64,000 nt of DNA from the NCBI GenBank assembly GCA_963712585.1, contig CAVQIH010000012.1, positions 36,692 to 100,691 on the forward strand. The letters run 5' to 3'. Source of the stretch: an uncultured Chloroflexia bacterium. Its GTDB lineage: Bacteria > Chloroflexota > Limnocylindria > Limnocylindrales > CSP1-4. Positions 12,904 to 43,649 of this stretch are shown here, one piece after another. The translations under genes and the position numbers were made by a program. Each line of letters opens with the position of its first letter. The stretch's first letter is position 1. The notes beneath the pieces were generated by a model. That model had not been told where the DNA came from and did not search any database. It saw nothing but the letters and a program-made list of their open reading frames with translations.

Positions 12904-12960
12904 CGCCGACCGTCGGCGCCCGGCGCCGATCCCGCGGGGACCGGCCCTGCAGGCACCGGG

Positions 12961-20639: not shown

Positions 20640-21061
20640 GGCTGCGAGCTCAAGCCGTTCCGCCAGGATCAGGCCGCCGGCCTCGTGCAGGGCGGGTGCG
20701 GTGATCGCCTACGAGCGCAACGGCGGCGCCGCCTGCGTCGACGAGCTGTACGCGATCTACCCGGACGGGCGGATCACCGGGGACAACGGCAGGCCAGACA
20801 GGTCGAGAGGCCAGATCGCGCCGGCCGACGTCGCGGCGCTGCTCGTCCGACATCAGCGCCCTCGGCTGGTTCACCGACAACATGTACTCGACCTCGCACA
20901 CCCCGTGCGGCCAGTGCTTCACGTACTTCACGGCGGTGTCGCACAACGGGCAGGCCAAGACGGTGCAGGCGGTCGACGGCGGCACGGACGCTCCGGCCAA
21001 CTACTGGCTCGTGACCGGCAAGCTGTCGGCGATCCTGCCCAAGTTCACCGCGGCGCCGTGA
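20640..21061 (+). pseudogene. hypothetical protein (apparent frameshift near 20850)
   Basis: Protein-like composite ...AGAVIAYERNGGAACVDELYAIYPDGRITGDNG...DISALGWFTDNMYSTSHTPCGQCFTYFTAVSHNGQAKTVQAVDGGTDAPANYWLVTGKLSAILPKFTAAP. No family recognised. Confidence 0.3.
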
Positions 21062-21239
21062 TGACCGAGGACGAGCGAGGCGATGAACGCGCGGACGGCC
21101 CTCGTTCCCGCTCGTCGCGTGCGCGCTGCTCGTCGGCGCGCTGCGGCTACATCGTGACGCCGGCAGGACGACAGCTCGCCGACGCCGGCGGCTGACCGGC
21201 GGCTGGACGCGCGGTCGCCACGAAGGTCGAGGCAGCCGC

Positions 21240-22020: not shown

Positions 22021-22028
22021 GAAGCACG

Positions 22029-27480: not shown

Positions 27481-27939
27481 ATGACCGCGCTCGCCGCCAC
27501 CGAGGTGCCGCGGAGCACGAAGCCAGGGTTCGCCCCCCGGATCCTGGTCTTCTCCACCAACAACATCTCGGACCCCGGGATCGACCTGGCCGGGAGCTCG
27601 CACCTGCACTACTCCCCGGGCGTCGTCGTCATCGGGCTGCCCTGCACGAGTGGGATCAGGCCGTCGTGGATCCTCCACGCCATCGAGCGCGGGTTCGACG
27701 GCGTCTTCATCGCCGCGGACGGCGACGAGTGCGCCTACCTGGTGGATTGTGCGAAGCGGGCCTCGCGGATCGTGGCTGACGCGCAAGCGCTCCTGCGGGC
27801 GAACGGCCTCCAGACCCAGCGGTTGAAGATGGCCGCCATCTGCTCCGTCTGCGCCGATCCGTTCACCAAGTATGTCCAGCAGTTCACGCAGGCGCTCGCC
27901 GAGCTGGACCGGCCGGAGGAGGCACGTCATGGACTATGA
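27481..27939 (+). CDS. mvhD: MvhD/FlpD-like hydrogenase iron-sulfur subunit domain protein (partly degenerate Cys set)
   Basis: ..RILVFSTNNISDPGIDLAG..YSPGVVVIGLPCTSGIRPSWILHAIERGFDGVFIAADGDECAYL... aligns to the MvhD pattern (FxCNWCxYxGADLAG ... VMCSGR ... DGVLVxGCHxGDCHY), but the first two Cys are replaced by N/S. The stop overlaps the downstream HdrA ATG. Confidence 0.65.
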   Translation: MTALAATEVPRSTKPGFAPRILVFSTNNISDPGIDLAGSSHLHYSPGVVVIGLPCTSGIRPSWILHAIERGFDGVFIAADGDECAYLVDCAKRASRIVADAQALLRANGLQTQRLKMAAICSVCADPFTKYVQQFTQALAELDRPEEARHGL

Positions 27940-30631
27940 CGTGCTGGTCGTGGGGAGCGGGATCGGCGGAATGGAGTCCGCGCTCAAGCTCGGCGACATG
28001 GGCTACCGCGTCCTCCTGGTCGAGAAGGAGGCCAGCGTGGGCGGGAAGATGATCCTGCTCAGCAAAGTCTTCCCCACCCTCGACTGCGCGAGCTGCATCT
28101 CGACTCCCAAGATGGCGGCCACGATCCACCATCCCAACATCACCGCACTCACCTACAGCGAGGTTGGAGGGATCACCCAGAGCGGCGAGGGGCATTTCAG
28201 GGCCAGCATCCGCCAGAAGGCGCGCTTCGTCGACGAGGCGCGCTGCACGGGGTGTCAGCTCTGCGAGATCGCCTGCACCGTGGCTGTGCCCGATCAGTTC
28301 AACGCCGACCTCGTGGCCAGGCGGGCCGCCTACATCGCCTTTCCCCAGGCGGTGCCGAAAAAGGCGGTCATCGAGCGCGCGGGCGCCTCGCCCTGCTCGC
28401 ATACCTGCCCGGCCGGGATCCCTGCCCATGGTTACGTCTCGCTGATTCGGAGTGGCGAGTTCGAGAAGGCTTTCCAGCTGGTTCTCGACGTCACGCCCCT
28501 CGTGGGGACGCTGGGTCGGGCCTGCTACGCGCCGTGCGAGGCCGACTGCACACGCGGCCTGCTCGAGGGGACGCTCCCGATTCGGCGCCTGAAGCGCTTC
28601 GCCGCGGACACCCATTACCGGGGCGCGGACGGCCCGGGGATCACCGCCCCGGCTCCCAACGGACGAAAGGTGGCGGTCGTCGGCTCCGGGCCGGCCGGCC
28701 TGACCGCCGCCTGGCAGCTGGCGCGGAAGGGCTACCTGGTCAAGATCCTCGAGGCCGCCCCGGAGCCCGGAGGCTTCCTGCGCCTGGCCATTCCCGCCTA
28801 TCGCCTGCCGGCCGAGGTCGTCGAGCGCGACATCGAGAACGTCACGGCGCTGGGCGTGGAGATTGCCACCGGCACGCGGGTCGACGACCTCGAGGACCTG
28901 CGCGGCCAGGGGTTCGACGCGGTCCTGGTGGCGACCGGAACGCCGCGGTCTACGACGCTGGGACTGACTGGGCAGGACCTTCACGGCGTCGTCACCGGCC
29001 TGGAGTTCCTCCGTGGAGTGAGACTCGGCCAGGCGGCCGACCTGCAGGCAAAGCACGTGGTCGTGGTCGGCGGAGGCAACGTGGCCATGGACGCCGCCCG
29101 CACCGCTCGACGCATGGGGGCCCGCCAGACGACCGTTCTCTACCGGCGCGGCCACCAGGAGATGCCGGCCCACGTCGCCGAGGCGGAGGACGCCCGCCAG
29201 GAGGGCGTCGAATTCCAGTTCCAGGTCGCTCCCGTCGAGGTGCTCGATGACGGTCGCGGCAGTGTGGGCGGTGTGCGCTGTCGCCGCATGGCGCTCGGCG
29301 CGCCCGACCAGTCCGGTCGCCGGCGCCCGGCGCCAATCCCCGGCAGCGAGTTCACCATCGACTGCGAGGCGGTGATCATCGCCATCGGCATGGCCCCCGA
29401 CACCGAGACGTTCGCGACGCGAGTGTCGGCCAACGCGGACGGCACACTCCGTGTCAACCCCCAGACACTCCAGACTCCCGTCCCGTACATCTTCGCGGCG
29501 GGCGATGTCGTGACCGGTGCCACCGACATCACGCGGGCCGTCGGGCAGGGCCGCCGGGCCGCCTTCATGATCGACCGTTGGCTCCAGGGTCACGAGCTCA
29601 GCGGCTTCGACGACGAGCTCCCGGTCGTCGACAAGCTGCACGTCCTGGAGCGACAGCGGCAGTACACGCATCGCGAGCCGCCCGCGCCAGCCGTGCGGCC
29701 ATCCGTCGCACCTGGCGATTTCGCAGAGCTGGAGCCGCCGATGGGCGAGGCCGAGGCGCGCGAGGCCGCCGGGCGGTGCCTCGACTGCGGTGTGTGCTCG
29801 GAGTGCGGTGAGTGCGTGGCTGCCTGCCCTGCCTTTGCCATCGACCTGAGGATGCGCGAGCGAGAGCGCAAGGTCGAGGTCGGTGCAGTCGTCGTCGCCA
29901 CCGGCTTCAGGCTGTTCCCGGCCGATCTCAAGCCGGAATACGGGTACGGCACGTTCAAGAACGTGATCACCGGGCTGCAGATGGACCGCCTCCTCGCCCC
30001 GACCCGACCGTTCCACACGATCCTCCGGCCGGGCGACGGCAAGGTTCCCGAGCGCATCGCCTACGTGATGTGCACGGGCTCCCGCGACGAGACCGTTGGC
30101 AACCCGCTGTGCTCCAAGTTCTGCTGCATGTACTCGATCAAGCAGAACCAATTGATCATGGGGGCCCTGCCGCTGGCCGACGTGACCGTGCACTACATGG
30201 ACATCCGCGCGGCCGGCAAGCGCTACGACGAGTTCTACGAGCAGGCCAAGTCCATGGGGGCCACCTATGTCAAGGGCCGGGTGGCCAAGATCACCGAGAA
30301 GGACGACGGCAACCTCGTCCTGCACTACGAGGACATCGAGCACGGGGGAGCCCTTGCCGAAGCTGAGTACGACCTGGTGGTGCTGGCGGTCGGCGTTCAA
30401 CCGAACAGCGACGCCCAAGCCCTGTTCCCGGCCGGCGAGCTGTCGCTCGACGAGTACCACTTCGTGGCAGAGCCGGACGAGGACCTGAATCCCGGCCAGA
30501 CCAGCATCCCCGGGGTCTACGTGGCCGGCGCCGCCTCCGGGGCCAAGGACATCACCGACTCGATCCTGCACGCGGGCGCGACCGCGGCGCAGGTCGCGGC
30601 CCACCTCGAGCGGCTGAAGGTGCCGGCATGA
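27929..30631 (+). CDS. hdrA: HdrA-like flavoprotein with an inserted NfnB/GltD-type NAD(P)H:FAD oxidoreductase module (HdrL-like fusion, 900 aa)
   Basis: Starts MDYDVLVVGSGIGGMESALKLGDMGYRVLLVEKEASVGGKMILLSKVFPTLDCASCISTPK (HdrA FAD site plus the PTxDCxxC motif). Then a ferredoxin motif CTGCQLCEIAC. Then the GltD/NfnB N-terminal Fe-S signature PCSHTCPAGIP...GRACYAPCEADC. Then two Rossmann motifs (KVAVVGSGPAGLTAAWQLARKG ... HVVVVGGGNVAMDAART) and YIFAAGDVVTG. Then 4Fe-4S CLDCGVCSECGECVAACP. Then the HdrA C-terminal signature CTGSRDETVGNPLCSKFCCMYSIKQ ... GVYVAGAASG. Uninterrupted ORF. Confidence 0.8.
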   Translation: MDYDVLVVGSGIGGMESALKLGDMGYRVLLVEKEASVGGKMILLSKVFPTLDCASCISTPKMAATIHHPNITALTYSEVGGITQSGEGHFRASIRQKARFVDEARCTGCQLCEIACTVAVPDQFNADLVARRAAYIAFPQAVPKKAVIERAGASPCSHTCPAGIPAHGYVSLIRSGEFEKAFQLVLDVTPLVGTLGRACYAPCEADCTRGLLEGTLPIRRLKRFAADTHYRGADGPGITAPAPNGRKVAVVGSGPAGLTAAWQLARKGYLVKILEAAPEPGGFLRLAIPAYRLPAEVVERDIENVTALGVEIATGTRVDDLEDLRGQGFDAVLVATGTPRSTTLGLTGQDLHGVVTGLEFLRGVRLGQAADLQAKHVVVVGGGNVAMDAARTARRMGARQTTVLYRRGHQEMPAHVAEAEDARQEGVEFQFQVAPVEVLDDGRGSVGGVRCRRMALGAPDQSGRRRPAPIPGSEFTIDCEAVIIAIGMAPDTETFATRVSANADGTLRVNPQTLQTPVPYIFAAGDVVTGATDITRAVGQGRRAAFMIDRWLQGHELSGFDDELPVVDKLHVLERQRQYTHREPPAPAVRPSVAPGDFAELEPPMGEAEAREAAGRCLDCGVCSECGECVAACPAFAIDLRMRERERKVEVGAVVVATGFRLFPADLKPEYGYGTFKNVITGLQMDRLLAPTRPFHTILRPGDGKVPERIAYVMCTGSRDETVGNPLCSKFCCMYSIKQNQLIMGALPLADVTVHYMDIRAAGKRYDEFYEQAKSMGATYVKGRVAKITEKDDGNLVLHYEDIEHGGALAEAEYDLVVLAVGVQPNSDAQALFPAGELSLDEYHFVAEPDEDLNPGQTSIPGVYVAGAASGAKDITDSILHAGATAAQVAAHLERLKVPA

Positions 30632-32364
30632 GCGAGCGGCGGATCGGGGTCTACGTCTGTCACTGCGGCGGGAACATCTCCGACTACGTCGACGTGGACG
30701 AGGTCGTGGCCCAGGTCAGGGGCGATGCCGACGTGGTCGTGGCCCGCACGGCCATGTTCGCCTGCTCGGACGCCACCCAGCAGGAGATGCTCCAGGACAT
30801 CGCGGAGCACAAGCTCGACGGCCTGGTCGTCGCCTCGTGCTCGCCCAAGCTGCACACCTACACCTTCCGCGGAGTGGCGGCCCGGGCCGGTCTGAACCCC
30901 TACGAGTACTCCCAGGTGAACATCCGGGAGCAGTGCTCCTGGGTGCACACCGACGACCCAAAAGGGGCCACCAGCAAGGCAACCGGCCTGGTGAAGGCGG
31001 GCATCGCCCGAACCAGGCTGACGACGCCCCTCGAGCCGATCGTCGTCGAGACGGTCCCCAAGACGCTGGTGATCGGGGGTGGCATCGCCGGCCTGCGGGC
31101 GGCGATCGGGCTGGCGAGGATCGGGCTCGGCGTCTTCCTGGTCGAACGCGAGGCGGAGCTCGGGGGCTGGGTGGGCCGCTTCGGCCCGATGTACCCCCAC
31201 GGGCGGGACGGCGCAGAGCTGATCGCCGGCCTCGTGCAGGAGGTCCGGGCCAACCCTTCGATCACCGTGTTCATGGGGGCCGAGGTCGTCAGCAAGGCGG
31301 GCAGTTTCGGCAACTACCAGGTCGGCATCCGGGTCAAGTCGACGCCGCCGCAGACGATCCAGCTCGAGGTCGGCTCGCTGGTCGTGGCCACCGGGTTCGA
31401 TGCCTACCAGCCGGAAGCCGGGGAGTATGGCTACGGGATCGGAGGCGTGCTGACGCTGCCGGAGTTCAAGGAGCTGATCGACCGGTCGGCGGGACGGCTC
31501 ACCTACCAGGGGAGGCCGGTCGGGACCGTCGTCTATGTCTACTGCGTCGGCAGTCGGCAGGCCGCCGAACCGCCCGGGGCCAACGCGTACTGCTCGCGCT
31601 ACTGCTGCGCGGCCACCGTCCAGGCCTCGATCCAGGTCGCGGGGCTCGACCCGAAGGTCCACCAGTACCACCTCTACCGCGACATGCGGACGTACGGCCG
31701 GTACGAGCTGCTGTACACGGAGTCTCGGAAGAAGGGCTCGGTGTACGTGAAGTTCGCCGATGGTGCTCCACCCGCCGTGACCAGGCTGGATGACGGGCGG
31801 CTGATGGTCAACGTGCGAGATCTCTTGACAGGCGGCGAGGAGCTCGCGATCCCGGCAGACCTGGTCGTCCTGGTCACCGGCATGGTCCCCCGGAGCAACG
31901 CCGATCTGGTGCGGGCCCTCAAGGTGCCGGTGGGTACGGACGGGTTCTTCAACGAGATCCACCCCAAGTTGCGGCCGGTCGAAACCGTAGTGGATGGCGT
32001 CCTCATCGCCGGGGCCTGTCAGGGGCCGAAGAGCTCGGCCGAGGCGGTGGCTTCCGGTCTGGCCGCCGTCACCCAGAGCGCCGCCGTCTTGAAGAAGGGC
32101 TATGCCGAGCTGGATCCGCTGATCGCGGAGGTCGACACCGACGCCTGCAGTGGATGCGGCGAATGCCTCGCGGCCTGCCCGTACGAGGCCATCCAGATGG
32201 CCGACCTGAACGGCCGGGCGGTCGCCGTCATCAGCGAGACCGGCTGCAAGGGCTGTGGCGGATGCGTGCCCCTCTGCCCGGAGAACGTGATCGATCTGCG
32301 GGGCTATGCCGATGCCCAGATCACCGCCATGATCGACAGCCTGCTCGAGGTCCCGGTCGGATGA
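30628..32364 (+). CDS. HdrA/QmoB-like flavoprotein with N-terminal Cys-cluster (MvhD-like) domain and C-terminal 2x[4Fe-4S] ferredoxin domain
   Basis: N-terminus RIGVYVCHCGGNISDYVD...FACSDAT...VVASCSPKLH is the HdrA N-terminal cluster domain. FAD site TLVIGGGIAGLRAAIGLARIGLGVFLVERE. HdrA signature CVGSRQAAEPPGANAYCSRYCCAAT. C-terminal motifs CSGCGECLAACP and CKGCGGCVPLCP. ATGA overlap with the upstream gene. Confidence 0.8.
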   Translation: MSERRIGVYVCHCGGNISDYVDVDEVVAQVRGDADVVVARTAMFACSDATQQEMLQDIAEHKLDGLVVASCSPKLHTYTFRGVAARAGLNPYEYSQVNIREQCSWVHTDDPKGATSKATGLVKAGIARTRLTTPLEPIVVETVPKTLVIGGGIAGLRAAIGLARIGLGVFLVEREAELGGWVGRFGPMYPHGRDGAELIAGLVQEVRANPSITVFMGAEVVSKAGSFGNYQVGIRVKSTPPQTIQLEVGSLVVATGFDAYQPEAGEYGYGIGGVLTLPEFKELIDRSAGRLTYQGRPVGTVVYVYCVGSRQAAEPPGANAYCSRYCCAATVQASIQVAGLDPKVHQYHLYRDMRTYGRYELLYTESRKKGSVYVKFADGAPPAVTRLDDGRLMVNVRDLLTGGEELAIPADLVVLVTGMVPRSNADLVRALKVPVGTDGFFNEIHPKLRPVETVVDGVLIAGACQGPKSSAEAVASGLAAVTQSAAVLKKGYAELDPLIAEVDTDACSGCGECLAACPYEAIQMADLNGRAVAVISETGCKGCGGCVPLCPENVIDLRGYADAQITAMIDSLLEVPVG

Positions 32365-32606
32365 GCGCCCCGCGAGAGACCCGCGAGATCGTCCGCGAGG
32401 AACCCCTCATGCGGCGGCGGATCCTGGCCGTGCTCGCGGAAGGGCCGCGGACGATCCCCGAGATCGGCGCCGCGATCGGCAGCCCTACCCATGAAGTCCT
32501 GCTTTGGGTGATGGGCATGCGCAGGTACGGCTACATCGCCGAGGTCAAGGGCGACAGCGAGGACGGCTACTTCCGATACCGGGCCCTGGAGAGGGTCGCG
32601 CCATGA
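32361..32606 (+). CDS. small winged-helix (MarR/ArsR-like fold) protein embedded in the hdr operon
   Basis: 81-aa protein MSAPRETREIVREEPLMRRRILAVLAEGPRTIPEIGAAIGSPTHEVLLWVMGMRRYGYIAEVKGDSEDGYFRYRALERVAP. ATGA start overlap with the upstream stop, and its stop overlaps the next start, so it is translationally coupled on both sides. Confidence 0.5.
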   Translation: MSAPRETREIVREEPLMRRRILAVLAEGPRTIPEIGAAIGSPTHEVLLWVMGMRRYGYIAEVKGDSEDGYFRYRALERVAP

Positions 32607-33808
32607 CCAGCGTGACCGTGCAGCAGCTGGATCCGGACCTGTACTCGCAGCTCCAACGGTTCGGCGCGACCGACATCTCGGCCTGCTTCAACTGCGGCAC
32701 TTGCACCGCGATCTGCCCATTGTCGGAGCACGACGCGACCTTCCCCCGGCGGATCATCCGCTACGCACAGGTCGGCATGAAGGACGCCCTCCTCTCGAGC
32801 AAGGAGCTCTGGAGCTGCTACTACTGCGGCGAATGCTCGGAGACCTGCCCCACGCAAGCCGGTCCGAGCGAGTTCATGGCCGCCGCCCGGCGCTTCGCGA
32901 TTGCCAGCTACGACCGAACGCGACTGGCGCGGACGATGTATACGAGCCCCATCGTCGGGACCCTGGTCGCCGTGCTCCTGGCGGCCTTCTTCGCCCTCTT
33001 CATGTACGCCGGTCGGGGCCCTCAGAACACCCGATCGCTAGCCCTCTTCGAGTTCGTGCCAGCCGAGCTCGTTCACGACATCGGCATCGCGGTCATGATC
33101 GCCGTCTTCCTGGCCGGCCTCGTTGGCGTGGCCAGCATGGCGAGACGGATCGGGCGCTCCGAGGGCGTCGGCTGGCGAACGGTAATCGGCAGTCGCCCGG
33201 CGATTGGCCGATCGCTGCGAGCGCTCTGGGTCGCGCTTGGGCGCGAGTCGCTCGGCCAGCGGCGCTACCGGAACGAGTGCGAGTCCGCCCAGGAGCCGTT
33301 ACCCTGGTACCGCCGTCGGTGGCTGCTCCACGCGACCATCATGTGGGGCTTTCTGGGTCTGTTGGGCGCCACGATCCTCGACTATGGCCTGGCCCTGGCC
33401 GGCGTCAAGGCGACCGGGACCCCGGTGCCGATCTGGTACCCCGTTCGTTTGCTGGGGACCGTCGCAGGCGTAGCCCTCATGTACGGCACGACCATGGTCA
33501 TCAGCGACCGGCTGCGCGGCGCCAACCGGTCGGTCGTCCATTCCACGTCCGCGGACTGGACGTTGCTGACGCTCCTCTGGCTGGCCGGCGTGACCGGCTT
33601 TGTGCTGGAGCTCGCGCTCTATCTGCCGGACGCCCCGACCTGGGGCTACTGGGTATTCCTGTTCCACGTGGCGGTCGCCATGGAGCTCGTGCTGCTGGCC
33701 CCGTTCATGAAGCTCGCCCATGCCGTCTATCGGCCGGTCGCCCTCTTCTTCGTGGCGCTCGCCCAGGCGCCCGGAGACGGTGGCTCCGGCCACCCGACCG
33801 GCAGCTAG
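32603..33808 (+). CDS. QmoC-like protein: HdrC-type 2x[4Fe-4S] domain fused to HdrE/NarI-type six-helix membrane (putative dihaem cytochrome b) domain
   Basis: N-terminal CFNCGTCTAICP and CYYCGECSETCP (HdrC pattern), then six hydrophobic helices with conserved His (HDIGIAVM, LHATIMWG, FHVAVAMEL, LAHAVY). Same architecture as QmoC. Confidence 0.7.
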   Translation: MTSVTVQQLDPDLYSQLQRFGATDISACFNCGTCTAICPLSEHDATFPRRIIRYAQVGMKDALLSSKELWSCYYCGECSETCPTQAGPSEFMAAARRFAIASYDRTRLARTMYTSPIVGTLVAVLLAAFFALFMYAGRGPQNTRSLALFEFVPAELVHDIGIAVMIAVFLAGLVGVASMARRIGRSEGVGWRTVIGSRPAIGRSLRALWVALGRESLGQRRYRNECESAQEPLPWYRRRWLLHATIMWGFLGLLGATILDYGLALAGVKATGTPVPIWYPVRLLGTVAGVALMYGTTMVISDRLRGANRSVVHSTSADWTLLTLLWLAGVTGFVLELALYLPDAPTWGYWVFLFHVAVAMELVLLAPFMKLAHAVYRPVALFFVALAQAPGDGGSGHPTGS

Positions 33809-33897: not shown

Positions 33898-34390
33898 ATG
33901 ATGTCGATTCTGCCGCGGGTGGCGCACGAACACCACGAGCGACTCCTGCACCACGTCGATCAACTCCCAACCGTGGGCGACCTGATCGGGGTACTCCCGC
34001 TCGCCGAACTCCGCCCGGATCGGCGAGGCGTGCGGCTTCCTGAGCGGGCTCCTCATTCCCCACATGGAGGCCGCTGAAGGGACCCTCTACCCGGAGCTCG
34101 AGCGCCTCCTCCAGAACCGTCATTCGATGACACCGATGCGGCGCGAGCACGCCGAGATCCGGCGGCTGGTGGGCGAGCTCGGGCGGTTGCAGGAGGAGAT
34201 GGACGGCGGCCGGTTCTCGACCGGCGAAGCGGTCGCGCTCCGTCGTGTCATCTTCCGCCTCTACGCGCTGCTGAAGGTCCATCTCGCCGAGGAGCAGCTC
34301 TACATCGGGATCGTCGAGCACGGGGTCTCCGCCGAGGCCGCCGACGCCCTGGCGAAAGCGATGGAGCACGTCGGGACCGCGGAGTTCTGA
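33898..34390 (+). CDS. hemerythrin-like (HHE cation-binding) domain protein, one apparent frameshift near 34010
   Basis: RBS ggagg. MMSILPRVAHEHHERLLHHVDQLP.., then after the shift ..HMEAAEGTLYPELERLL..REHAEIRRLVGEL..LKVHLAEEQ (H-x3-E repeats). Paralog of the 35018-35539 gene. Confidence 0.55.
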
Positions 34391-34640
34391 TCGAAGCCAG
34401 CCGCTTCGGCACACCCCGCTCGAGGCCGCTATGCTCCAGACGCATATGGATGCGTCGAGCCAGAGAGCGCGGAGGACCGGCGGACGACCCGGGGCTCAGC
34501 ACGACCTCGAGCCTGGCGAGGAGCCTGCGGGACTCGACGACGGGACCGGGGTCGACTCCGCGACCGTGGCGTCCGACCGCGACGCAGCCGGCGTGCCGGT
34601 CCATCGCGGATGGGCTCCGCTCGGCGGGCGACGGCGGTGG

Positions 34641-34994
34641 ATGGAGCCGTTCGTGCTCGTCCTTCTCGCGGGTGGTGGCGCCCATGGCTACGCGATCACC
34701 GGCCAGCTCGAGGAGATGGGCATCACCGGTGGTTCGGTCGATCTCGGACAGGTGTACCGCACCCTGCGCGACCTCGAGCAGGCCGGCCAAGTGACCTCGA
34801 GCTGGTCAACCGAATCCGTGGGTCCCCAGCGGCGCGACTACGAGCTGACCGAGGCCGGCTACACGGCCCTCGACGAGTGGGCAGCGGTCATGAAGGCGCG
34901 AGCACGACTCGTCGCCGAGTTCGAGGCGCGCTACCTCGAGTCGGTCGCCAGCCCCAGGCGGTGGGCCCAGGGGGGCGATCCTCCGCGGCCCTGA
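34641..34994 (+). CDS. PadR-family transcriptional regulator
   Basis: MEPFVLVLLAGGGAHGYAITGQLEEMG...GQVYRTLRDLEQAGQVTSSW...RRDYELTEAGYTAL. The ORF extends upstream to 34431 with an Arg/Pro-rich region of doubtful reality. Confidence 0.75.
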   Translation: MEPFVLVLLAGGGAHGYAITGQLEEMGITGGSVDLGQVYRTLRDLEQAGQVTSSWSTESVGPQRRDYELTEAGYTALDEWAAVMKARARLVAEFEARYLESVASPRRWAQGGDPPRP

Positions 34995-35017
34995 CGGTAC
35001 CGGCCGCCAGCCGCCGC

Positions 35018-35539
35018 CTACAAGGGCTCGGCGACGGCGTGCTCGATGCCCCGGGCGAGCAGGTCCTTCTCCTGCACCGACAGGTTGTGGTCGAGGACGC
35101 CCAGGTAAAGCTCTTCTTCCGCAAGGTGGACCTTGAGGATCGCGTAGAGGCGGTAGAGAGCGCGCCGCAGGCCCATGCCCTCGGCCGGGTTGAGGCCTCC
35201 CGTGGCAAGGTCGGCCCGGTACTCACCGAGAGCGTCGATGAGCCGACGGAGGTCGGCGTGCTCGCGACGCATCGGGGCCATCGAGTGGCGGCCCTCCATG
35301 AGCCTTTCGAGCCGCCCGTAGAGGGTCGTCTCGATCGCTTCCATGTGCGGGACGAGCTGACCGACGATGAAGCGGTATTCCGCCTCGAAGCTCACGCGGA
35401 AGGCGGCCGGGGGCTCACGGCCGATCATCTCCGCGAGCTCGGGCAGACGATCGACGTGCGCCTCGATCCTCTCGTGATGCTGGTGGCTGGTCCGCGCGAG
35501 CGACTCGGCGTCTGGCGTGTCCGTGGGCTCCGGGGGCAT
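35018..35539 (-). CDS. hemerythrin-like (HHE cation-binding) domain protein, paralog 2
   Basis: MPPEPTDTPDAESLARTSHQHHERIEAHVDRLPELA...HMEAIETTLYGRLERLM..REHADLRRLIDALG..LKVHLAEEELYLGVL. Roughly 45% identical to the 33898 gene. Divergent orientation. Confidence 0.6.
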   Translation of the reverse strand: MPPEPTDTPDAESLARTSHQHHERIEAHVDRLPELAEMIGREPPAAFRVSFEAEYRFIVGQLVPHMEAIETTLYGRLERLMEGRHSMAPMRREHADLRRLIDALGEYRADLATGGLNPAEGMGLRRALYRLYAILKVHLAEEELYLGVLDHNLSVQEKDLLARGIEHAVAEPL

Positions 35540-35644
35540 GGCCAACAGTGTACGGGGCAACGGACGCACTCTTCGCGCCTGACTCACGGCCCTTGCGGTG
35601 GCGCCCGCGCCGCCCGAGGATGACGGTCTCGGGAGGTGCCGCCC

Positions 35645-36657
35645 ATGACCGACTGGCGCGACCGGCTCAACGCCGATCCCCTGCCCTGGCTCCTCGAAGA
35701 CGAGACGCCCGCCGTCCGGCACCTGGCACTCCGCCAGCTGCTCGACCGGTCGGCCGACGACCCCGACGTGATGGCGGCGCGGGACGCCGCGACGCGCGCC
35801 GACCCGATCGCGGCGATCTTCGCCGCCCAGGATCCGGCCGGCTGGTGGGCCAAGCCGGGACCCGGCTACGCCCCAAGTACAGCGGCACGGCCTGGCAGCT
35901 CATCTTCCTCGACCAGCTGGGGGCCGACCCGGACCAACCCGCGGTCGCCGCGGGCTGCGACTACGTCCTCTCCCACTCCCAGGCGACCTCGGGCGGCTTC
36001 GGGGCGTCATCGGTGCGTACCTCGTCTGCACCGCCGCCGTCGATGGTCATCCACTGCCTCAACGGCAACCTCCTGCGCGCCCTGGTGGGCTTCGGTCGCC
36101 TGGACGACGAGCGGGTTCAACGGGCCGTCGAATGGCAGGCTGCCGCCATCACCGGCGAGGGTGAGATCCGCTTCAACGCCATCACCCCCGGACCGGGCTT
36201 CCGCTGCGGCGCGAACGAGGGGCTCCCGTGCGGCTGGGGGGCCACCAAGGCAGTCCTCGGCCTGGCCCGCATCCCGCCCGAACGGCGCGGCCCGCGCGTC
36301 CAGCGGGCCCTCGACGCCGGGGTCGACTTCCTCCTCAGCCGCGACCCTGCCACCGCGGACTACCCAATGGGCTACGGGAACACCAAGCCGAGCAGCTCGT
36401 GGTTCAGGCTCGGCTTCCCCTCAGGCTACGTCGGCGACGTCCTCCAGGTGCTCGAGGCCCTCTGCGAGGCCGGCGCGGCCCACGATGGTCGCCTCGGCCC
36501 AGCCGTGGCGTGGCTGCTCGGCCAGCAGGACCGCGCCGGCCGCTGGGAGAACCGCTACGCCTACGCGGGCAAGATGATCGTCGACATCGACCAGCCGGGC
36601 CGCCCGAGTCGCTGGGTCACCCTGCGCGCTTGTCGCGTCCTCAAGGCCGTCGCTTAA
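35645..36657 (+). CDS. hypothetical protein, possible prenyltransferase/terpene-cyclase-like alpha-alpha toroid repeat protein (one apparent frameshift near 35873)
   Basis: MTDWRDRLNADPLPWLLEDETPAVRHLALRQLL...WWAKPGPGYAP|KYSGTAWQLIFLDQLGADP...GWGATKAVLGLARIP...GRWENRYAYAGKMIVDIDQPGRPSRWVTLRACRVL. The fold assignment is tentative. Confidence 0.35.
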
Positions 36658-36756: not shown

Positions 36757-38680
36757 ATGCCGAAGGGCTACGTCCGGCTCACCCACCCGCTCGTGCGCGA
36801 TGCCCGCAGCGCGCCGTTCCGGCAGGCGACCTGGGAAGAGGCGCTCGACCGGACGGCCGCCGGTTTGCGCGTCGCCAGCGAGCGGGGCGGGACGCGGAGC
36901 TTCGGGCTGTTCAGCTGCTCGAAGGCGACCAACGAAATGAACTTCGCGGCCCAGAAGTTCGCTCGGGCCGTCATCGGCAGCAACAACGTCGATAGCTGCA
37001 ACCGAACCTGACACGCTCCCAGCGTCGCCGGTCTGGCGACAGTCTTCGGAGCCGGGGGCGGCACCAGCTCCTTCCGTGAGGTGGAGGAGACGGATCTCGT
37101 CGTCCTCTGGGGCTCGAATGCCCGCGAGACGCATCCGATCTTCTTCCATCACCTCCTCAAGGGGATCCACAACGGGGCGCGCCTCTACGCGGTCGATCCG
37201 CGCCGGACGAGCTCGGCGGCCTGGGCGGACGGCTGGCTCGGGCTCGACGTGGGAGCGGACATTGCGCTCGCCAACGCGATCGGTCGCGAGATCATCGCTG
37301 CCGGCCTGGAGCATCGCGGCTTCATCGAGCACGCCACGACAGGCTTCGAAGCCTACCGGGCCAAGGTCGAGCCCTACACCCTCGCCCACGCCGAGCGGGA
37401 GACGGGCGTCCCGGCCGACCTGATCCGCGAGCTCGCCCACGCCTACGCCACGGCCCCCCGGGCGATGATCTGCTGGACGCTCGGCATCACCGAGCATCAC
37501 AACGCGGTCGACAACGTCCTGGCCCTCATCGACCTGGCCCTCCTCACCGGCCACGTCGGCCGCTACGGGAGCGGCCTCAACCCGCTCCGCGGCCAGAACA
37601 ACGTCCAGGGCGGCGGTGACATGGGCGCCATCCCCGATCGGCTGCCGGGCTTCCAGCACGTCGAGAACGAGGAGCTGCGGGCGAAGTTCGAGGCGGCCTG
37701 GGGAGTGACCATCCCGCCCAAGCGGGGCTGGCACCTCTCGGCGATGTTCGAGGCGATGGAACGGCGCGAGCTCACCACCCTCTACGTGATCGGCGAGAAC
37801 CCGCTTCAATCCGAGGCCGACCAGGCCAAGGCCCGGCACGCGCTCGAGGGTCTCGACTTCCTCGTCGTGCAGGACATCTTCCTGACCGCCACCGCCCGAG
37901 CTCGCCGACGTCGTCCTACCAGCCTCCGCGTCCTGGGCCGAATCGGAGGGCACGGTCACCAACAGCGAACGTCGCGTCCAGCGCGTCCGGCGCGCGCTGG
38001 ACGCCCCCGGCGAGGCTCGCGACGACCTGGCGATCCTCTTCGAGCTGGCCCGCCGCCTCGGGGCCGACTGGGGTGCCCCCGATCCGGAACGCGTCTGGGA
38101 CGAGCTGCGCTCCCTGAGCCCGATGCACGCAGGGATGAGCTACGCCCGCCTGGATGCCCTCGGCGGCATCCAGTGGCCCTGCTACGACGAGGACCACCCG
38201 GGCGAGCTGTTCCTCCATTCGCGGCTCTGGGAGGACCCGCTACCCGGCCGGCGGGTGCCCTTCGTGCCGGTCGACCACAAGCCGCCGGTCGACCGGCTCG
38301 ATGACGACTTCCCGATCCGCCTGACGACCGGCCGCCGCCTCGACTCCTACAACACCGGCGTCCAGACGGCCGGCTATCGGTCCCCGTTGCGGCGCGGCGA
38401 ATCACTCGACATCTCGCCGGAGGACGCGGCCCGCCATGGCCTCGCCGAGGGCGAGAAGGTCCGCGTCGTGTCGCGACGGGGCGAGCTCGTGGCTCCGGTC
38501 CGGATCGATAAATCGCTCCGTCCGGGCCTGACCTTCATGACCCTCCATTTCCAGGACGACGTGGCGACCAACCTGCTGACGATCGACGCGACGGACCCCA
38601 AGTCCGGCACGGCCGAGTTCAAGGCGACGGCGATCCGGATCGAGAAGCTCACCGCCGCGGCGAGTGGCGGGGCAGGTTGA
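36757..38680 (+). CDS. fdhA: formate dehydrogenase catalytic (molybdopterin) subunit, selenocysteine-containing (in-frame UGA at 37009-37011); lacks the N-terminal Fe-S domain; one apparent frameshift near 37900
   Basis: RBS gggaggagg. ...[32 protein letters not shown]... aligns residue-for-residue with E. coli FdhF [32 protein letters not shown] (Sec140). Downstream ..NPLRGQNNVQGGGDMGA.., then after a 1-nt shift ..ELADVVLPASASWAESEGTVTNSERRVQRV.. and the C-terminal capping domain. Confidence 0.85.
37012..37050 (+). promoter_or_regulatory. putative bacterial SECIS element (hairpin GUCGCC-GGUCU-GGCGAC, 12 nt after UGA)
   Basis: The sequence after UGA is CACGCUCCCAGC, then the stem-loop. The E. 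coli fdhF SECIS has the same layout (UGA, CACGGCCCAUCG, stem, GGUCU apical loop). Confidence 0.6.
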
Positions 38681-38692
38681 CCGGAGGCGGCG

Positions 38693-38974
38693 ATGGCCGA
38701 GTGGATCTACTTCATTCACCCGCCCCGCGAGAACTTCGCGGACACCATGACCGACGAGGAGATCGAGGTCTGGGGCGTTCACTTCGAGCGCTTCGAACGC
38801 CTCCTGGCTGAGGGAGTCCTGGTCCTCGTCGGCCCGACGCTCGGCCAGGTGAACACCGGCATCGCCATCTTCGAGGCCCCCGACGAGGCGAGCGCCCGCC
38901 GGCTCATGGAGGAGGACCCGGTCATGCCGGCGGATTCGCGCGAGGCGAGCTTCGGCCGTTCCGCGTCTCGCTGA
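38693..38974 (+). CDS. YciI-like / dimeric alpha-beta-barrel family protein (C-terminus may be frameshifted)
   Basis: MAEWIYFIHPPRENFADTMTDEEIEVWGVHFERFERLLAEGVLVLVGPTLGQ... fits YciI-like domain length and pattern. The alternative frame gives a more typical ..GGFARGELRPFRV C-terminus. Confidence 0.45.
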   Translation: MAEWIYFIHPPRENFADTMTDEEIEVWGVHFERFERLLAEGVLVLVGPTLGQVNTGIAIFEAPDEASARRLMEEDPVMPADSREASFGRSASR

Positions 38975-39052
38975 TGCGCGGACGCGACGGGTAGGCGCGG
39001 ACGCGACCTGCGCCGGCGGCTCCACGCCCGGACTGGCGCCTGGTCCGATGCC

Positions 39053-39271
39053 TCAGGGATGGGCGTCTCTGGAGGGACCGCCCGGCTCGCCCTGGCCGGG
39101 GGCGACCACGACCTCGTCCTCGCAGGTCGCGCAGCGGTAGAGCTGCGCTCCGTGGGCAAGCGCGCGCTCCACGTCGTGGTCGGTCGGCGAGTGGTGCTCA
39201 CGGCGCTCCATGCGGACCTTCTTGCCGCCATGCAGGTGGAACAGCTCCATCGACGGGAGCGGGTTGATCAC
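39053..39271 (-). CDS. hypothetical small protein with a single CxxC (YRCATCEDE)
   Basis: 72-aa ORF MINPLPSMELFHLHGGKKVRMERREHHSPTDHDVERALAHGAQLYRCATCEDEVVVAPGQ.. Weak support; possible zinc-ribbon. Confidence 0.25.
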   Translation of the reverse strand: MINPLPSMELFHLHGGKKVRMERREHHSPTDHDVERALAHGAQLYRCATCEDEVVVAPGQGEPGGPSRDAHP

Positions 39272-39387
39272 GTTGACCCTCCTTCGGCGCTGGTGGAACC
39301 AGCCTAGCGGCGCGGGTCAACGGAACGGCCCGCCGTGGCGCCGATCCAGCATCGGACGCTGGCCCGGGGTGGCTACACTCGTCGTGG

Positions 39388-41412
39388 ATGGACCTCCACG
39401 TCATCGCGCCGCTCGCGTCCCCGGCGGAACGTGCCGCGGTGGACGCCGTGCTCGATCCGGAGATCGGGCCGGCGAGATCGCGCTGGTTCGGGGCTCCCCG
39501 CGACGCGAGCGCCGACGGGCGAGCCGCTCGCGGGGGCCACGGGGCCCGAGCGCGCCGCGACCTGCTCCTCCCCGCGTTGCTCGCCGTGCAGGGCCGGGCC
39601 GGCTGGATCAGCCAGCCAGCGCTCGGCTACATCTGCCGCCGGCTGACCGTTCCACCCGCCGAGGCGTATGGCGTGGCGACGTTCTACGCCCTCCTGTCGC
39701 TCGAGGAGCGACCACCAGTGGTGGCCCACGTCTGCGAGGATCTCGCCTGCCGCCTGGCGGGATCGGAGGCGATCTGCGCGGACCTCGAGCGAACCCTCGG
39801 GCCCGAGAACGCTCCGGCCCGCAATGGGACGGTGGCCTGGCGGCGGAGCCCGTGCCTGGGTCGGTGCGAGCGGGCCCCCGCCGCCCTGTACACGGTTGCC
39901 GGTGAGGAGCCCGAGATGGTAACCGCGGCGCCGGTCGATGCCGCGCTGGTCATCGGCGCCCTCGACGCGGCAGCCGCCGGGCAGCAGCTCGCTCCCGTGG
40001 GCGTGGCGACGGCTCCGACGCCAGAGCGCCTGGCCGAACTCCGGCGCTCGATTCCGCAAGCGGGCTCGGGGGACCTGCTCCTACTGGGCCGGATCGGCCT
40101 TGCCGACCCGCGAAGCCTCGCGGACTACCTGGCTCGGGGAGGCTATCGCGGCCTCCGGCGGGCCCTCGAGCTCGGCCCCGAGGCGGTCGTCGAGGAGGTC
40201 ACTGCGGCGGGCCTGCTCGGCCGCGGCGGGGCTGCCTTCCCGACCGGCCGCAAGTGGGCCGCGGTGGCCGCTGCCCCTGCCCGTCCCCACTACACGGTCT
40301 GCAACGCCGACGAGTCCGAGCCCGGCGCGTTCAAGGACCGCGCCCTCATGGAGGACGACCCGTTCGCGGTGGTAGAGGCCATGACGATCGCGGGCTTCGC
40401 CACCGGCTCCCAGCGCGGCTACCTCTACCTGCGCGCCGAATACCCGCCTTGCGCCGAGCGTCTGGCGAACGCCCTGACCCAGGCCCGGGAGGCCGGCTAC
40501 CTCGGGCCGGACATCCTGGGCTCCGGCTTCGCCTTCGACATCGAGCTCCGGCGCGGAGCCGGGGCCTACGTCTGCGGCGAGGAGACGGCCCTCTTCGAGT
40601 CGATCGAGGGGCGGCGCGGCGAGCCCCGCAACAAGCCGCCGTTTCCGGTCGACGTCGGCCTCTTCGGCAAGCCGACCGTGGTCAACAACATCGAGACGCT
40701 GGTCAACGTCCTTCCGATCGTGGCCGATGGTTCCGCCGCCTTCAGCCGCATCGGAACCGCCGGCTCGAGCGGCCCCAAGCTCTTCTGCCTCTCGGGCGAC
40801 GTCGCCCGCCCGGGCCTCTACGAGGTCCCCTTCGGGACGACCCTTCGGGAGCTCCTCGAGCTCGCCGGCGGGGTACGGGACGAGGACCCGGCCCACGTCC
40901 CTGCAACCGCGGGCACCAACGACGCGAGCGGTCCGGGCCCGCTGGAGGTGTCGATCCAGGCCGTCCTCATCGGCGGAGCTGCGGGCACGTTCGTGGGCCC
41001 CGAGAGCCTCGACCTGCCGCTCACCTTCGAGGCAACACGGGAGGCCGGGGTGTCGCTCGGGTCCGGCGTCGTGATGGTCTACGGCCGCAACGCGGACCTC
41101 GGCGAGGCACTTCGGCGCATCGCGGCGTTCTTCCGTGACGAATCGTGCGGCCAGTGCGTGCCCTGTCGGGTCGGCACCGTCCGCCAGGAGGAGCTCGTGG
41201 CTCGCGTCCTGGCTGGGCGCCCGAACGGCTCGCTCGAGGCCGAGCTGGCGCTCTTCCGGGACCTCGCCCAGGCGATGCGCGACGCCTCGATCTGCGGGCT
41301 TGGCCAGCTCGCCTCGATCGCCATCGCCTCCGCGTTCGAACAATTCGACGTTGTCCCGGGTCGGGGCGCAGCTTCGGATAGGCCCGCCTCCCCCTCGGGG
41401 ACGCCGCGATGA
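39388..41412 (+). CDS. NuoE-NuoF fusion: NAD(P)H-binding flavoprotein/diaphorase subunit of formate dehydrogenase (FdsGB-like)
   Basis: N-terminal NuoE 2Fe-2S motifs (HVCEDLACRLAG...RSPCLGRCERAPA). C-terminal NuoF: GRGGAAFPTGRKW, GAGAYVCGEETALFESIEGRRGEPRNKPPFP (FMN/NADH site), ESCGQCVPCRVG (4Fe-4S). Intact 674 aa. Confidence 0.85.
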   Translation: MDLHVIAPLASPAERAAVDAVLDPEIGPARSRWFGAPRDASADGRAARGGHGARARRDLLLPALLAVQGRAGWISQPALGYICRRLTVPPAEAYGVATFYALLSLEERPPVVAHVCEDLACRLAGSEAICADLERTLGPENAPARNGTVAWRRSPCLGRCERAPAALYTVAGEEPEMVTAAPVDAALVIGALDAAAAGQQLAPVGVATAPTPERLAELRRSIPQAGSGDLLLLGRIGLADPRSLADYLARGGYRGLRRALELGPEAVVEEVTAAGLLGRGGAAFPTGRKWAAVAAAPARPHYTVCNADESEPGAFKDRALMEDDPFAVVEAMTIAGFATGSQRGYLYLRAEYPPCAERLANALTQAREAGYLGPDILGSGFAFDIELRRGAGAYVCGEETALFESIEGRRGEPRNKPPFPVDVGLFGKPTVVNNIETLVNVLPIVADGSAAFSRIGTAGSSGPKLFCLSGDVARPGLYEVPFGTTLRELLELAGGVRDEDPAHVPATAGTNDASGPGPLEVSIQAVLIGGAAGTFVGPESLDLPLTFEATREAGVSLGSGVVMVYGRNADLGEALRRIAAFFRDESCGQCVPCRVGTVRQEELVARVLAGRPNGSLEAELALFRDLAQAMRDASICGLGQLASIAIASAFEQFDVVPGRGAASDRPASPSGTPR

Positions 41413-42419
41413 CGCTCGACCCGATCATCCTCGAGCCGCCGGCGCGACCGAGCCGGCCGCCCGAGGCGCCCGGGCAACCCGTCCGGCCCTTGGTGGAGCT
41501 CATGCTCGACGGACAGCCGGTCGCGGTGCCCGCAGGGTCGACGATCCTCGACGCGTGTCGGGCGGCTGGCCTCGACGTGCCGACGCTCTGCTTCCTCGAG
41601 ACGCTCACCCCGGTGAATGCCTGTCGCATCTGTGTCGTCGAGGTCGCCGGCGCTCGCGCGCTCGTGCCGGCCTGCTCGCGACCGGTGGAGCCCGGGATGG
41701 CCGTTTCCACCGACTCCGAGCGCGTCCGCCTGAGCCGGCGCCTCGTCCTCGAACTGCTGGGGTCCTCGGTCGACCTCTCGACCGCGCCCGAGGTCGCCGG
41801 CTATCTGGGCCGCTACGGCGCCGATCCGGGACGCTTCGGCCCACCGGGCCCGGCCATGGCCCCCGCTGAGCGCGACCGGCGCGAGGCCGGTCGCCATGGC
41901 CCCGTCGGCGGAGAGACGGCCGAGACGGTCGCCCAGCCAGTCAAGGTCGACAACGAGCTGTACGTCCGCGACTACGCCAAGTGCATCCTCTGCTACAAGT
42001 GCGTAGAGGCGTGCGGGGTCGATGCCCAGAACACGTTCGCCATCGCGGTGGCCGGGCGCGGCTTCGACGCCCACATCTCGACCGAGGCGGGCGTCCCGCT
42101 CCCCTCGTCGGCGTGCGTCTATTGCGGCAACTGCATCGGGGTCTGCCCGACGGGCGCCCTGATGTTCCGAAGCGAGCACGAGATGCGGGCCGCAGGTACC
42201 TGGAACGACGCCTCCCAGGCCCGGACCGACACGATCTGCCCGTACTGCGGCGTCGGCTGCGCGGTGACCGTGCACGTCCAGGACGACCGGATCGTCAAGG
42301 TCACCTCGCCCCAGGAGTCGTTCATCACCGGCGGCCACCTCTGCATCAAAGGCCGCTTCGGCTTCTCCTTCGTCCAGGAGCGTCCGCCCGAGACGACGGC
42401 CGAGGCCCAGCCAGGGTAG
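41409..42419 (+). CDS. NuoG-like Fe-S protein: the N-terminal electron-transfer half of an NAD-dependent FDH alpha subunit ([2Fe-2S], 2x[4Fe-4S], Mo-enzyme N-terminal [4Fe-4S]), as a separate polypeptide
   Basis: 2Fe-2S motif ..DVPTLCFLETLTPVNACRICVVEV... Ferredoxin motifs CILCYKCVEACG and CVYCGNCIGVCP. Then ICPYCGVGCAVTVHVQDDRIVKVTSPQESFITGGHLCIKGRFG matches the FdhF N-terminus VCPYCASGCKINLVVDNGKIVR...GTLCLKGYYG. Overlaps the NuoEF stop by 4 nt. Confidence 0.8.
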   Translation: MTLDPIILEPPARPSRPPEAPGQPVRPLVELMLDGQPVAVPAGSTILDACRAAGLDVPTLCFLETLTPVNACRICVVEVAGARALVPACSRPVEPGMAVSTDSERVRLSRRLVLELLGSSVDLSTAPEVAGYLGRYGADPGRFGPPGPAMAPAERDRREAGRHGPVGGETAETVAQPVKVDNELYVRDYAKCILCYKCVEACGVDAQNTFAIAVAGRGFDAHISTEAGVPLPSSACVYCGNCIGVCPTGALMFRSEHEMRAAGTWNDASQARTDTICPYCGVGCAVTVHVQDDRIVKVTSPQESFITGGHLCIKGRFGFSFVQERPPETTAEAQPG

Positions 42420-42770: not shown

Positions 42771-43649
42771 TCAGCCAGCCAGGTCGATGCGATCCGGACG
42801 GGTGTAGACGTTGAAGCCGTCGCCTCGCAGGAAGCCAACGAGCGTCATCCCCAGCCGCCCCGCGGTTTCCACCGCGAGGTCGCTCGGCGCCGAGACCGCA
42901 GCCAGGATGGGAACACCGGCCACGGCTGCCTTCTGGACCAGCTCGAAGCTGAGGCGACCCGAGACGAGCACGATCCGCTCGTGCAGCGGCAGCTCGCCCG
43001 CCAGGAGCGCCGCGCCGATCAGCTTGTCCAGGGCGTTATGGCGGCCGACGTCCTCGCGGACCGCCAGGAGCCGCCCACCCGGCTCGAAGAGCCCGGCCCC
43101 GTGGAGTCCGCCCGTCACCTCGAACACCGGCTGGGCCGCCCGCAGCATGCCTGGCATTCCTACGAGGGCCGCCCGTCCCACCGTCGGTCCGGGCGGCAGC
43201 GGCTCACAGCGCAGCACCACCTCGTCGATCGAGGCCTTGCCGCAGATGCCGCAGCTCGCGGTCGCCACGAAGTGCCGCTCCGCCACGGCCGAGGGGTCGA
43301 AGGCCGAGCGGAGCCGGACGGTCAGCTCGTTCTCGGGCCGGGCGAGCGTACCCGGGTCGCCGTACTCGAAGCCGCCGATCGCAGCACGCTCGATCAGGCC
43401 CTCGCTGAGGAGGAAGCCCGCGGCAAGCTCCTCGTCCGCGCCGGGGGTGCGCATCGTGACCGCCACGGCCGTCGGCGGCTGGCCCGGCCCGGCGGCCCGG
43501 ATCTCAAGCGGCTCCTCGCCGACCAGCCGGTCGATCACCTCGTCGATCGCCGGGCCGCGGACCCGCAGGGTCGGCCGCACCCCCACATCGTGCTCCGGAC
43601 CGGTCCCGACCCCACTCGAGGCCGCCTGGGCTCCTCGTGCCTGGCTCAT
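42771..43649 (-). CDS. fdhD: formate dehydrogenase accessory sulfurtransferase FdhD
   Basis: Conserved ..ATASCGICGKASIDEV.. active-site Cys loop and ..REDVGRHNALDKLIGAAL... Confidence 0.85.
   Translation of the reverse strand: MSQARGAQAASSGVGTGPEHDVGVRPTLRVRGPAIDEVIDRLVGEEPLEIRAAGPGQPPTAVAVTMRTPGADEELAAGFLLSEGLIERAAIGGFEYGDPGTLARPENELTVRLRSAFDPSAVAERHFVATASCGICGKASIDEVVLRCEPLPPGPTVGRAALVGMPGMLRAAQPVFEVTGGLHGAGLFEPGGRLLAVREDVGRHNALDKLIGAALLAGELPLHERIVLVSGRLSFELVQKAAVAGVPILAAVSAPSDLAVETAGRLGMTLVGFLRGDGFNVYTRPDRIDLAG

Follow-up and report, generated by a model that had tools for sequence, protein, structure and literature searches.

The 64-kb window analyzed here (the whole stretch of 64,000 nucleotides, 71% G+C, from an uncultured Chloroflexia bacterium; coordinates are window positions unless a related locus is named) very likely encodes a cytoplasmic, selenocysteine (Sec)-dependent formate dehydrogenase (FDH) with a molybdenum or tungsten bis-pyranopterin guanine dinucleotide (Mo-/W-bisPGD) center. 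The enzyme is probably NAD(H)-linked and would consist of three polypeptides, namely, a catalytic subunit without Fe-S clusters, a fusion of NuoE with NuoF, and an Fe-S subunit that resembles NuoG. As we read it, the in-frame UGA of the catalytic gene would be recoded via SelB, the gene order would be ancestral, and a frameshift in the catalytic gene would be an error of the consensus sequence. A first-pass annotation of this DNA, made from the letters and their translations, had proposed a Sec-containing FDH whose alpha subunit is split between two genes on either side of a diaphorase gene, and this description holds in its essentials when placed into the context of related loci. A species-level scan (one genome per species) gave at least 515 candidate related loci, the best 80 of which were taken for locus comparison; gene-order and codon counts refer to the 64 loci long enough to be informative, which span about nine phyla. 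The features of the FDH genes are as follows.

36757-38680, plus strand: catalytic Mo/W-bisPGD FDH subunit (Pfam Molybdopterin and Molydop_binding; NCBIfam TIGR01591)
37009-37011, plus strand: in-frame UGA, Sec residue 85, with His next (TGA in related loci)
37024-37040, plus strand: hairpin of the Sec insertion sequence (SECIS), with a 6-bp stem and a GGUCU loop, starting 12 nt after the UGA
37895-37897, plus strand: C-run with one extra C, a +1 frameshift (window ACCGCCCGAGCTC versus relatives ACCGCCGAGCTC)
39388-41412, plus strand: NuoE-NuoF fusion (diaphorase), 674 aa (Pfam 2Fe-2S_thioredx, Complex1_51K, SLBB, and NADH_4Fe-4S)
41409-42419, plus strand: N-terminal Fe-S subunit, NuoG/FdsA-like, 336 aa (Fer2_4, two Fer4, and Molybdop_Fe4S4)

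Catalytic and Fe-S subunits

The catalytic open reading frame (ORF) starts at ATG 36757, with a ribosome-binding site (RBS), GGGAGGAGG, 6 nt upstream, and reads MPKGYVRLTHPLVR...NVDSCNRT up to the TGA, after which HAPSVAGL follows in the same frame. With one C deleted, the product is 640 aa long and has no Fe-S cluster of its own. That the gene lacks the N-terminal Cys cluster, as noted at first pass, is borne out by its match to TIGR01591 (Fdh-alpha), which begins only at model position 53 and runs to 672 with 647 bits. The curated cut-off is 666.25, which this score misses because the other gene holds model positions 1-52; the model start (positions 1-51) is matched by the Fe-S gene product with 49.2 bits, and the plain sum of the two scores exceeds the cut-off.

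Alignment of both halves to solved relatives, a check that accompanied the first-pass annotation, extends this complementarity. The Fe-S subunit covers residues 21-304 of FdsA from Rhodobacter capsulatus (6tg9_A) and the catalytic protein covers residues 308-932, as well as residues 61-689 of Escherichia coli FdhH. Since FdsA is covered colinearly, the split is clean and nothing is missing. On the strength of these alignments, the two genes are best described as two parts of one canonical alpha subunit, cut just after the domain of the Mo-proximal 4Fe-4S cluster (FS0).

The metal ligand Sec stands directly before a histidine in T-U(TGA)-H-A-P-S (residues 84-89), which is identical in the 64 relatives, and identity between the catalytic gene and its counterparts in these loci is 68-84%. 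The active-site Arg motif LNPLRGQNNVQG is also present (compare R333 of E. coli FdhH, in NPVRGQNNVQG), with the role of this arginine taken from PMC8808070 and established knowledge.

The domains found in the 336-aa product of 41409-42419 agree with the earlier proposal that the N-terminal Fe-S part is encoded by a separate gene. It is predicted to hold a 2Fe-2S cluster, two ferredoxin-type 4Fe-4S clusters, and FS0, plus the lysine of CIKG, and the FS0 motif CPYCGVGC...CIKG is located on this product and not at the catalytic N-terminus. The gene start overlaps the stop of NuoEF as ATGA. Among the best 120 matches to this subunit, identity is 72-78% (one match, P0002, is without a figure), and each is a stand-alone protein (327-422 aa) that shows the same set of domains and lacks a Molybdopterin domain. 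These 120 homologues all retain the 16 ligand cysteines (those of the 2Fe-2S and the three 4Fe-4S clusters), and the C-terminus lies 8-35 residues past CIKGRFG, mostly 10-14. The best 120 matches to the catalytic protein are likewise stand-alone, 539-555 aa long, and represent ORFs that start past the TGA. Fused relatives longer than 800 aa reach at most 46% identity to the small subunit, in a representative search that returned mostly fragments.

Selenocysteine codon, SECIS, and Sec machinery

The first-pass assignment of the TGA to the Mo-ligand position is well supported across the family, as TGA stands at the Sec codon in all 64 related loci, and Cys in none. Downstream, the stem halves GUCGCC and GGCGAC (37024-37029 and 37035-37040) enclose the loop, in which G23 and U24 have the same offset from the UGA as in E. 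coli fdhF, for which the reference sequence was verified in 5,413 genomes. The proposed fdhF-type layout of a 12-nt spacer, stem, and GGUCU loop can therefore be retained on the basis of this offset and of the covariation of the stem. In an alignment of 57 distinct sequences, all six stem pairs are standard in 100% of cells, a share that drops to 15-83% in controls with the 3' partner shifted over 1-3 columns. Compensatory changes occur in two stem pairs, one passing from C-G to U-A via U-G and the other from C-G to G-C via two synonymous third-position changes, and the covariation score is reached by 0 of 500 shuffles, the aligned sequences being related to each other and protein-coding. Third codon positions are nearly invariant within the hairpin and vary freely outside it, and RNAalifold independently predicts the same hairpin.

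We built the case for the SECIS on such comparative evidence because folding-energy z-scores, at -0.5 to -2.1, are not significant in sequence of 71% GC. No Rfam SECIS family reaches its gathering score in the window, where SECIS_3 gives 14.9 bits (E of about 1) at 37006-37064. The folding and model check suggested at first pass is thus answered by a comparative consensus hairpin but not by single-sequence energies or an Rfam gathering score. Judged from the alignment, the SECIS is real and beyond chance. A covariance model made from the same alignment has one strong match in the window and also picks up the SECIS of FDH paralogues from two related loci.

In the related loci L001 (11018-17548, minus strand) and L003 (about 8800-14522, minus strand), the split operon has a second Sec-containing FDH paralogue beside it. 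There, an N-terminal Fe-S part with a His-cluster domain (PF10588) reads through a TGA into a protein of 1791 aa, in which the catalytic domain is joined to NuoE, NuoF, and a GltD-like flavoprotein. A weaker match to the SECIS model (28.9 bits) was seen in locus L065 (13337-13402, plus strand) inside another molybdoenzyme-like gene, which may be a further selenoprotein.

The genes for Sec synthesis and insertion are all inside the window, about 24 kb from the FDH operon; the coordinates of selA and selB are given from stop to stop.

2862-4946, minus strand: selB (Pfam GTP_EFTU plus SelB beta-barrel and wing domains)
4787-6301, minus strand: selA (SelA, 368 bits)
11600-11696, minus strand: tRNA-Sec, selC (ARAGORN; Rfam RF01852, 72.3 bits)
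11874-12900, plus strand: selD, selenophosphate synthetase of the Cys type (AIRS and AIRS_C in successive frames, with a break near 12436)

Among the relatives, sel genes also adjoin the catalytic gene on its upstream side (selD in 16 loci, selA in 10, and selB in 7).

Frameshift in the catalytic gene

The single-nucleotide frameshift reported at first pass near 37900 is present, as one extra C at 37895-37897, but an assembly or consensus error is a likelier origin than biology, and we regard it as likely in its own right, because the window has dozens of other frame breaks, one of them in selD. At this point, reading moves from frame 1 to frame 2, and the conserved reading goes on as ELADVVLPASASWAESEGT to the stop at 38680; deletion of one C brings back QDIFLTATAELADVVLP, the most frequent peptide of the family. 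A Viterbi model of codon usage with switches between frames permitted places about 40 switches in 15735-23120 (7.4 kb, plus strand), where G+C is as elsewhere. The fragments in this stretch are real proteins, including a sugar ABC transporter binding protein, an ATPase, and permeases, along with an arabinose-isomerase-like gene, and the stretch looks like an indel-rich consensus. More switches fall in aldolase, LacI-type, FGGY-kinase, and selD genes, with selD carrying one net extra base relative to its relatives. In related long-read metagenome-assembled genomes (MAGs), the same genes are broken at other positions. Programmed frameshifting at 37897 was considered and rejected, as no relative shifts there.

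It is conceivable that the frameshift is instead real and that this genome is losing its selenoprotein system, with fdh and selD as young pseudogenes. Such a loss would fit with single-base breaks that hit both selD and the sole FDH-type selenoprotein gene found in the window, for which the covariance model gives no other FDH-type SECIS. We nevertheless consider it unlikely, as the breaks extend to dozens in unrelated genes of the window (about 40 in 15.7-23.1 kb alone) and related long-read MAGs carry scattered breaks elsewhere in the same gene. Both flanks of the break are still about 80% identical to relatives, no second lesion is seen, the corrected peptide is the family consensus, and selA, selB, tRNA-Sec, and the SECIS are intact.

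Gene order in related loci

All 64 informative loci have the order catalytic gene, NuoEF, and Fe-S subunit on one strand. The best 80 loci, by the labels of their MAGs, come from Chloroflexota (Limnocylindria, Thermomicrobiaceae, and Anaerolineaceae), Planctomycetota (Gemmata and Isosphaeraceae), Rokubacteria, Acidobacteriota, Actinomycetota, Verrucomicrobiia, Binatia, Gemmatimonadaceae, and Candidatus Cybelea. NuoEF and the Fe-S gene always stand side by side, with a gap of at most 224 nt that is usually below 170 nt, and the gap between the catalytic gene and NuoEF is below 100 nt in about 40 loci. The split order had been called uncommon at first pass, a view that does not survive the comparison, given its invariance, the at least 515 candidate loci, and the stand-alone state of the best 120 homologues of each half. 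As far as this synteny can be read, the order is an invariant hallmark of the family and ancestral, not a local rearrangement. Searches of the open-access literature brought up no account of an FdsA-type alpha subunit that is split or permuted, although mention elsewhere is possible.

The constant pairing of NuoEF with the Fe-S gene could also suggest an independent NADH:acceptor module that serves several catalytic partners, the FDH being one client. In many Limnocylindria, unrelated cargo parts the catalytic gene from the pair while the pair itself stays adjacent, and an FS0 split from its Mo domain could act as a docking module. This arrangement seems improbable to us, as every informative locus has the catalytic gene upstream and in the same orientation, FS0 domains are fitted to a single Mo domain, and no second cluster-free Mo subunit was found in the window or the related loci. 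The dedicated three-subunit FDH remains the preferred reading.

Diaphorase subunit and comparison with known enzymes

The fused NuoE-NuoF that had been placed between the alpha halves is confirmed by its Pfam domains, with a 2Fe-2S cluster, flavin mononucleotide (FMN), an NAD(H) site, and a 4Fe-4S cluster as predicted cofactors. The NuoF-like FMN/NADH part with one 4Fe-4S cluster and the NuoE-like 2Fe-2S part that characterize NAD-linked FDHs are thus both represented. Only eight cluster cysteines are invariant in 58 sequences (116, 121, 156, and 160, and then 587, 590, 593, and 636). No C-terminal ferredoxin domain was found in NuoEF, the alignment of which to HydB-type chains stops about 20 residues before the C-terminus.

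The closest counterpart in cofactor content is the tungsten enzyme FDH1 of Methylorubrum extorquens (Fdh1A/Fdh1B; PDB 7vw6 and 7e5z), which is cytoplasmic and NAD-linked, the same type as proposed here, and which likewise has a NuoE-NuoF fusion. Its alpha subunit holds three clusters of the 4Fe-4S type plus a single 2Fe-2S cluster with no His-ligated cluster, and its beta subunit holds FMN plus one cluster each of the 4Fe-4S and 2Fe-2S types (PMC13397495), an inventory equal to that predicted for the window enzyme. Fdh1A is, however, one polypeptide with a Cys ligand, whereas here there are two alpha genes, Sec, and a catalytic gene that precedes the diaphorase gene. Sequence identity to FDH1 is modest (the catalytic protein reaches 432 bits with 7vw6_A, to which the N-terminal part aligns only over residues 191-324).

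FdsA of the FdsABG(D) enzymes of R. capsulatus and Cupriavidus necator (PDB 6tg9 and 6vw7) is the best solved match for the Fe-S subunit, and these systems also have NuoF-like and NuoE-like partners and an FdhD/FdsC-type maturation factor nearby. FdsA is fused and uses Cys, and FdsB and FdsG are separate proteins, in contrast to the split alpha subunit, Sec, and fused NuoEF of the window. The single alpha subunit with a NuoG-like extension that is shared by FdsABG and Fdh1AB is replaced here by two genes that lie apart in 64/64 relatives, and no FdsD was found. In FdsA, cluster A4, bound by His117, Cys121, Cys124, and Cys130, is located at the dimer interface, away from the main pathway (PMC7171172). 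In the window Fe-S subunit, these ligands (H117, C121, C124, and C130) are all replaced, by V, T, E, and G, and neither Cys nor His occurs at these positions in the 120 homologues.

With E. coli FdhH (fdhF), the window enzyme has in common the Sec-His site, the Arg motif, the distance of the hairpin from the UGA, and GGUC in the loop. The fdhF stem has a bulged U and a 4-nt loop, whereas the window stem has six perfect base pairs and a 5-nt loop. FdhH also has its own FS0 and belongs to formate hydrogenlyase, unlike the FS0-free catalytic subunit described here.

A bifurcating or ferredoxin-linked FDH of the HylABC-FdhF2 (Bfu) type was considered in the first-pass annotation. The predicted cofactor set agrees with that of non-bifurcating NAD-linked enzymes (M. 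extorquens FDH1 and FdsABG) and not with that of HylABC-FdhF2. The likeness consists of a stand-alone NuoG-like Fe-S protein, reminiscent of HylA, and a NuoF-like flavoprotein beside the FDH, and the best-scoring solved relatives of NuoEF include HydB-type subunits of bifurcating hydrogenases (7t2r_B and 7p5h_B). The window system differs in having one thioredoxin-like 2Fe-2S domain only and in carrying FS0 on the Fe-S protein and not on the catalytic subunit; FdhF2 keeps its own FS0. In Bfu, sites B2-B5, which include a C-terminal 2x4Fe-4S domain, are extra clusters of the B subunit; they are absent in non-bifurcating homologues, and B3/B4 are essential for bifurcation (PMC11829005). With eight cluster cysteines, conserved sites for one 2Fe-2S and one 4Fe-4S cluster, and no ferredoxin domain, NuoEF is without the clusters needed for Bfu bifurcation, and the His-ligated cluster of the NuoG-like part is missing too, so that we hold this assignment to be very improbable. 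Misassembly of the contig, with the halves truly contiguous, was also raised at first pass and has next to no chance of being correct, for although the assembly is plainly error-prone at the single-base level, the same split, order, and gene ends recur in 64 independent assemblies from several technologies, the small gene ends shortly past CIKGRFG across 120 homologues, and the catalytic gene has its own RBS and ATG.

Proposed electron path

From the genes, domains, ligand motifs, Sec codon, conserved SECIS, and family-wide synteny that are observed directly, a route for the three-subunit NAD(H)-linked FDH can be proposed, in which assembly of the complex, the path of the electrons, the acceptor NAD+, and the reaction direction are inferred. 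In FdhH, the lysine beside the last FS0 cysteine lies between the pterin and FS0. Here, HLCIKG, with that cysteine and lysine, is on the small subunit, and the first electron transfer would therefore cross a subunit interface. Following recoding of UGA 37009 by SelB at the fdhF-type hairpin, formate would be oxidized at the Sec85/His86/Arg site, and electrons would cross to FS0 on the small subunit. They could then pass through its two ferredoxin-type 4Fe-4S clusters and its 2Fe-2S cluster to the 4Fe-4S cluster of the NuoF part, FMN, and finally NAD+, possibly in a reversible manner.

Several points weigh against this reading. The enzymes of this family are predictions from sequence, and sequence does not discriminate between Mo and W or between NAD+ and NADP+. 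In about 24 loci, mostly of Limnocylindria, 0.4-4.9 kb of unrelated genes, some on the opposite strand, lie between the catalytic gene and NuoEF, and co-transcription is therefore not universal. The catalytic gene and selD are both frameshifted as assembled, and the enzyme may be non-functional in this particular organism. An AlphaFold2 model of the Fe-S subunit (from a 32-sequence alignment) had a mean predicted local distance difference test (pLDDT) value of 52.8, too poor for use, and was set aside.

Position among formate dehydrogenases

Metal-dependent FDHs are intensively studied as catalysts of CO2 reduction and serve as markers of C1 metabolism, and the NAD-linked enzymes characterized to date (FdsABG and FDH1) rely on cysteine and on one large alpha subunit. 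Taken singly, the Sec codon, SECIS, and NuoEF fusion are ordinary. What appears to be new, from comparison of the sequences, is Sec dependence together with an NAD-type diaphorase, an alpha subunit that is both split and permuted, and the supply of FS0 and the relay lysine from a second polypeptide. Of note are the conserved supply of FS0 in trans, the permuted order, and the strict reliance of an NAD-type enzyme from soil lineages on Sec; the carriers include the soil-dominating Limnocylindria, Acidobacteriota, Planctomycetota, and Rokubacteria. A clean natural division between FS0 and the Mo domain also offers a ready test case for assembly and for electron passage across an interface.

Automatic annotation renders the enzyme as an 84-87-aa fragment, a "YjgC-like oxidoreductase" of about 540 aa, and a "2Fe-2S cluster-binding protein." As the enzyme is thereby broken into three differently named pieces, metagenomic surveys are likely to miss or miscount it.

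It could be speculated further, as a doubtful extension of the above, that this is an undescribed, widespread class of Sec-dependent, NAD-linked FDHs of soil bacteria with FS0 and the relay lysine in trans, in which the leading position of the Sec cistron, with its UGA as codon 85, may serve as a checkpoint for selenium. If recoding failed, only a short peptide would be made, and polarity would also curb synthesis of the flavin and Fe-S subunits, while a fused gene would instead yield a 390-residue, Fe-S-loaded dead-end fragment.

Neighboring genes

Further features stand between or next to the FDH genes.

38693-38974, plus strand: YciI-like gene (Pfam YCII, 28.8 bits against a cut-off of 24, a narrow pass)
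39053-39271, minus strand: small antisense ORF with CxxC, a candidate gene (third-position G+C content 0.89, coding-like)
42771-43649, minus strand: FdhD sulfurtransferase for cofactor sulfuration (Pfam FdhD-NarQ, 217 bits), convergent with the operon

The YciI-like gene and the antisense CxxC ORF had been noted between the alpha halves at first pass, and both exist, but the comparison assigns them to variable spacer cargo and not to the conserved components. A YciI-like homologue occurs in one related locus only, at another position there. The antisense ORF matches no Pfam family and has no homologue among 81 related loci, and its non-conservation rules it out as a component of the system. 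Cargo in the spacers of relatives includes glyoxalase-type, GYD, and SRPBCC proteins, an antitoxin, a protease, a two-component system, and an ABC transporter; examples are found at 3044-7962 of locus L050 and 4575-8121 of locus L009.

FdhD adjoins the operon in many relatives and here scores 162.8 bits against TIGR00129 (cut-off 140.9) and 267.2 against NF001943, just below its cut-off of 269. A promoter and terminator scan was uninformative, with no promoter-like sites and with terminator-like sites at chance rate.

Directly upstream of the FDH, at 35548-36657 (plus strand), is a gene with a weak squalene-cyclase/prenyltransferase-like repeat (20.5 bits) and an apparent frame break near 35873. 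At 33986-35722, just upstream of the FDH, two ORFs that look hemerythrin-like flank a putative PadR-like regulator, all three assigned from their translations; the related loci contain no counterpart of any of them. The stretch at 27827-33805 (plus strand), about 3 kb upstream of the FDH, has three large flavin/Fe-S genes. The first product (934 aa) is GltD-like, contains Fer4_20 and Pyr_redox_2, and shares 46% identity with the GltD-like tail of the giant FDH from locus L001; the other two are an HdrA-like protein of 665 aa and a Fer4_8 protein of 437 aa.

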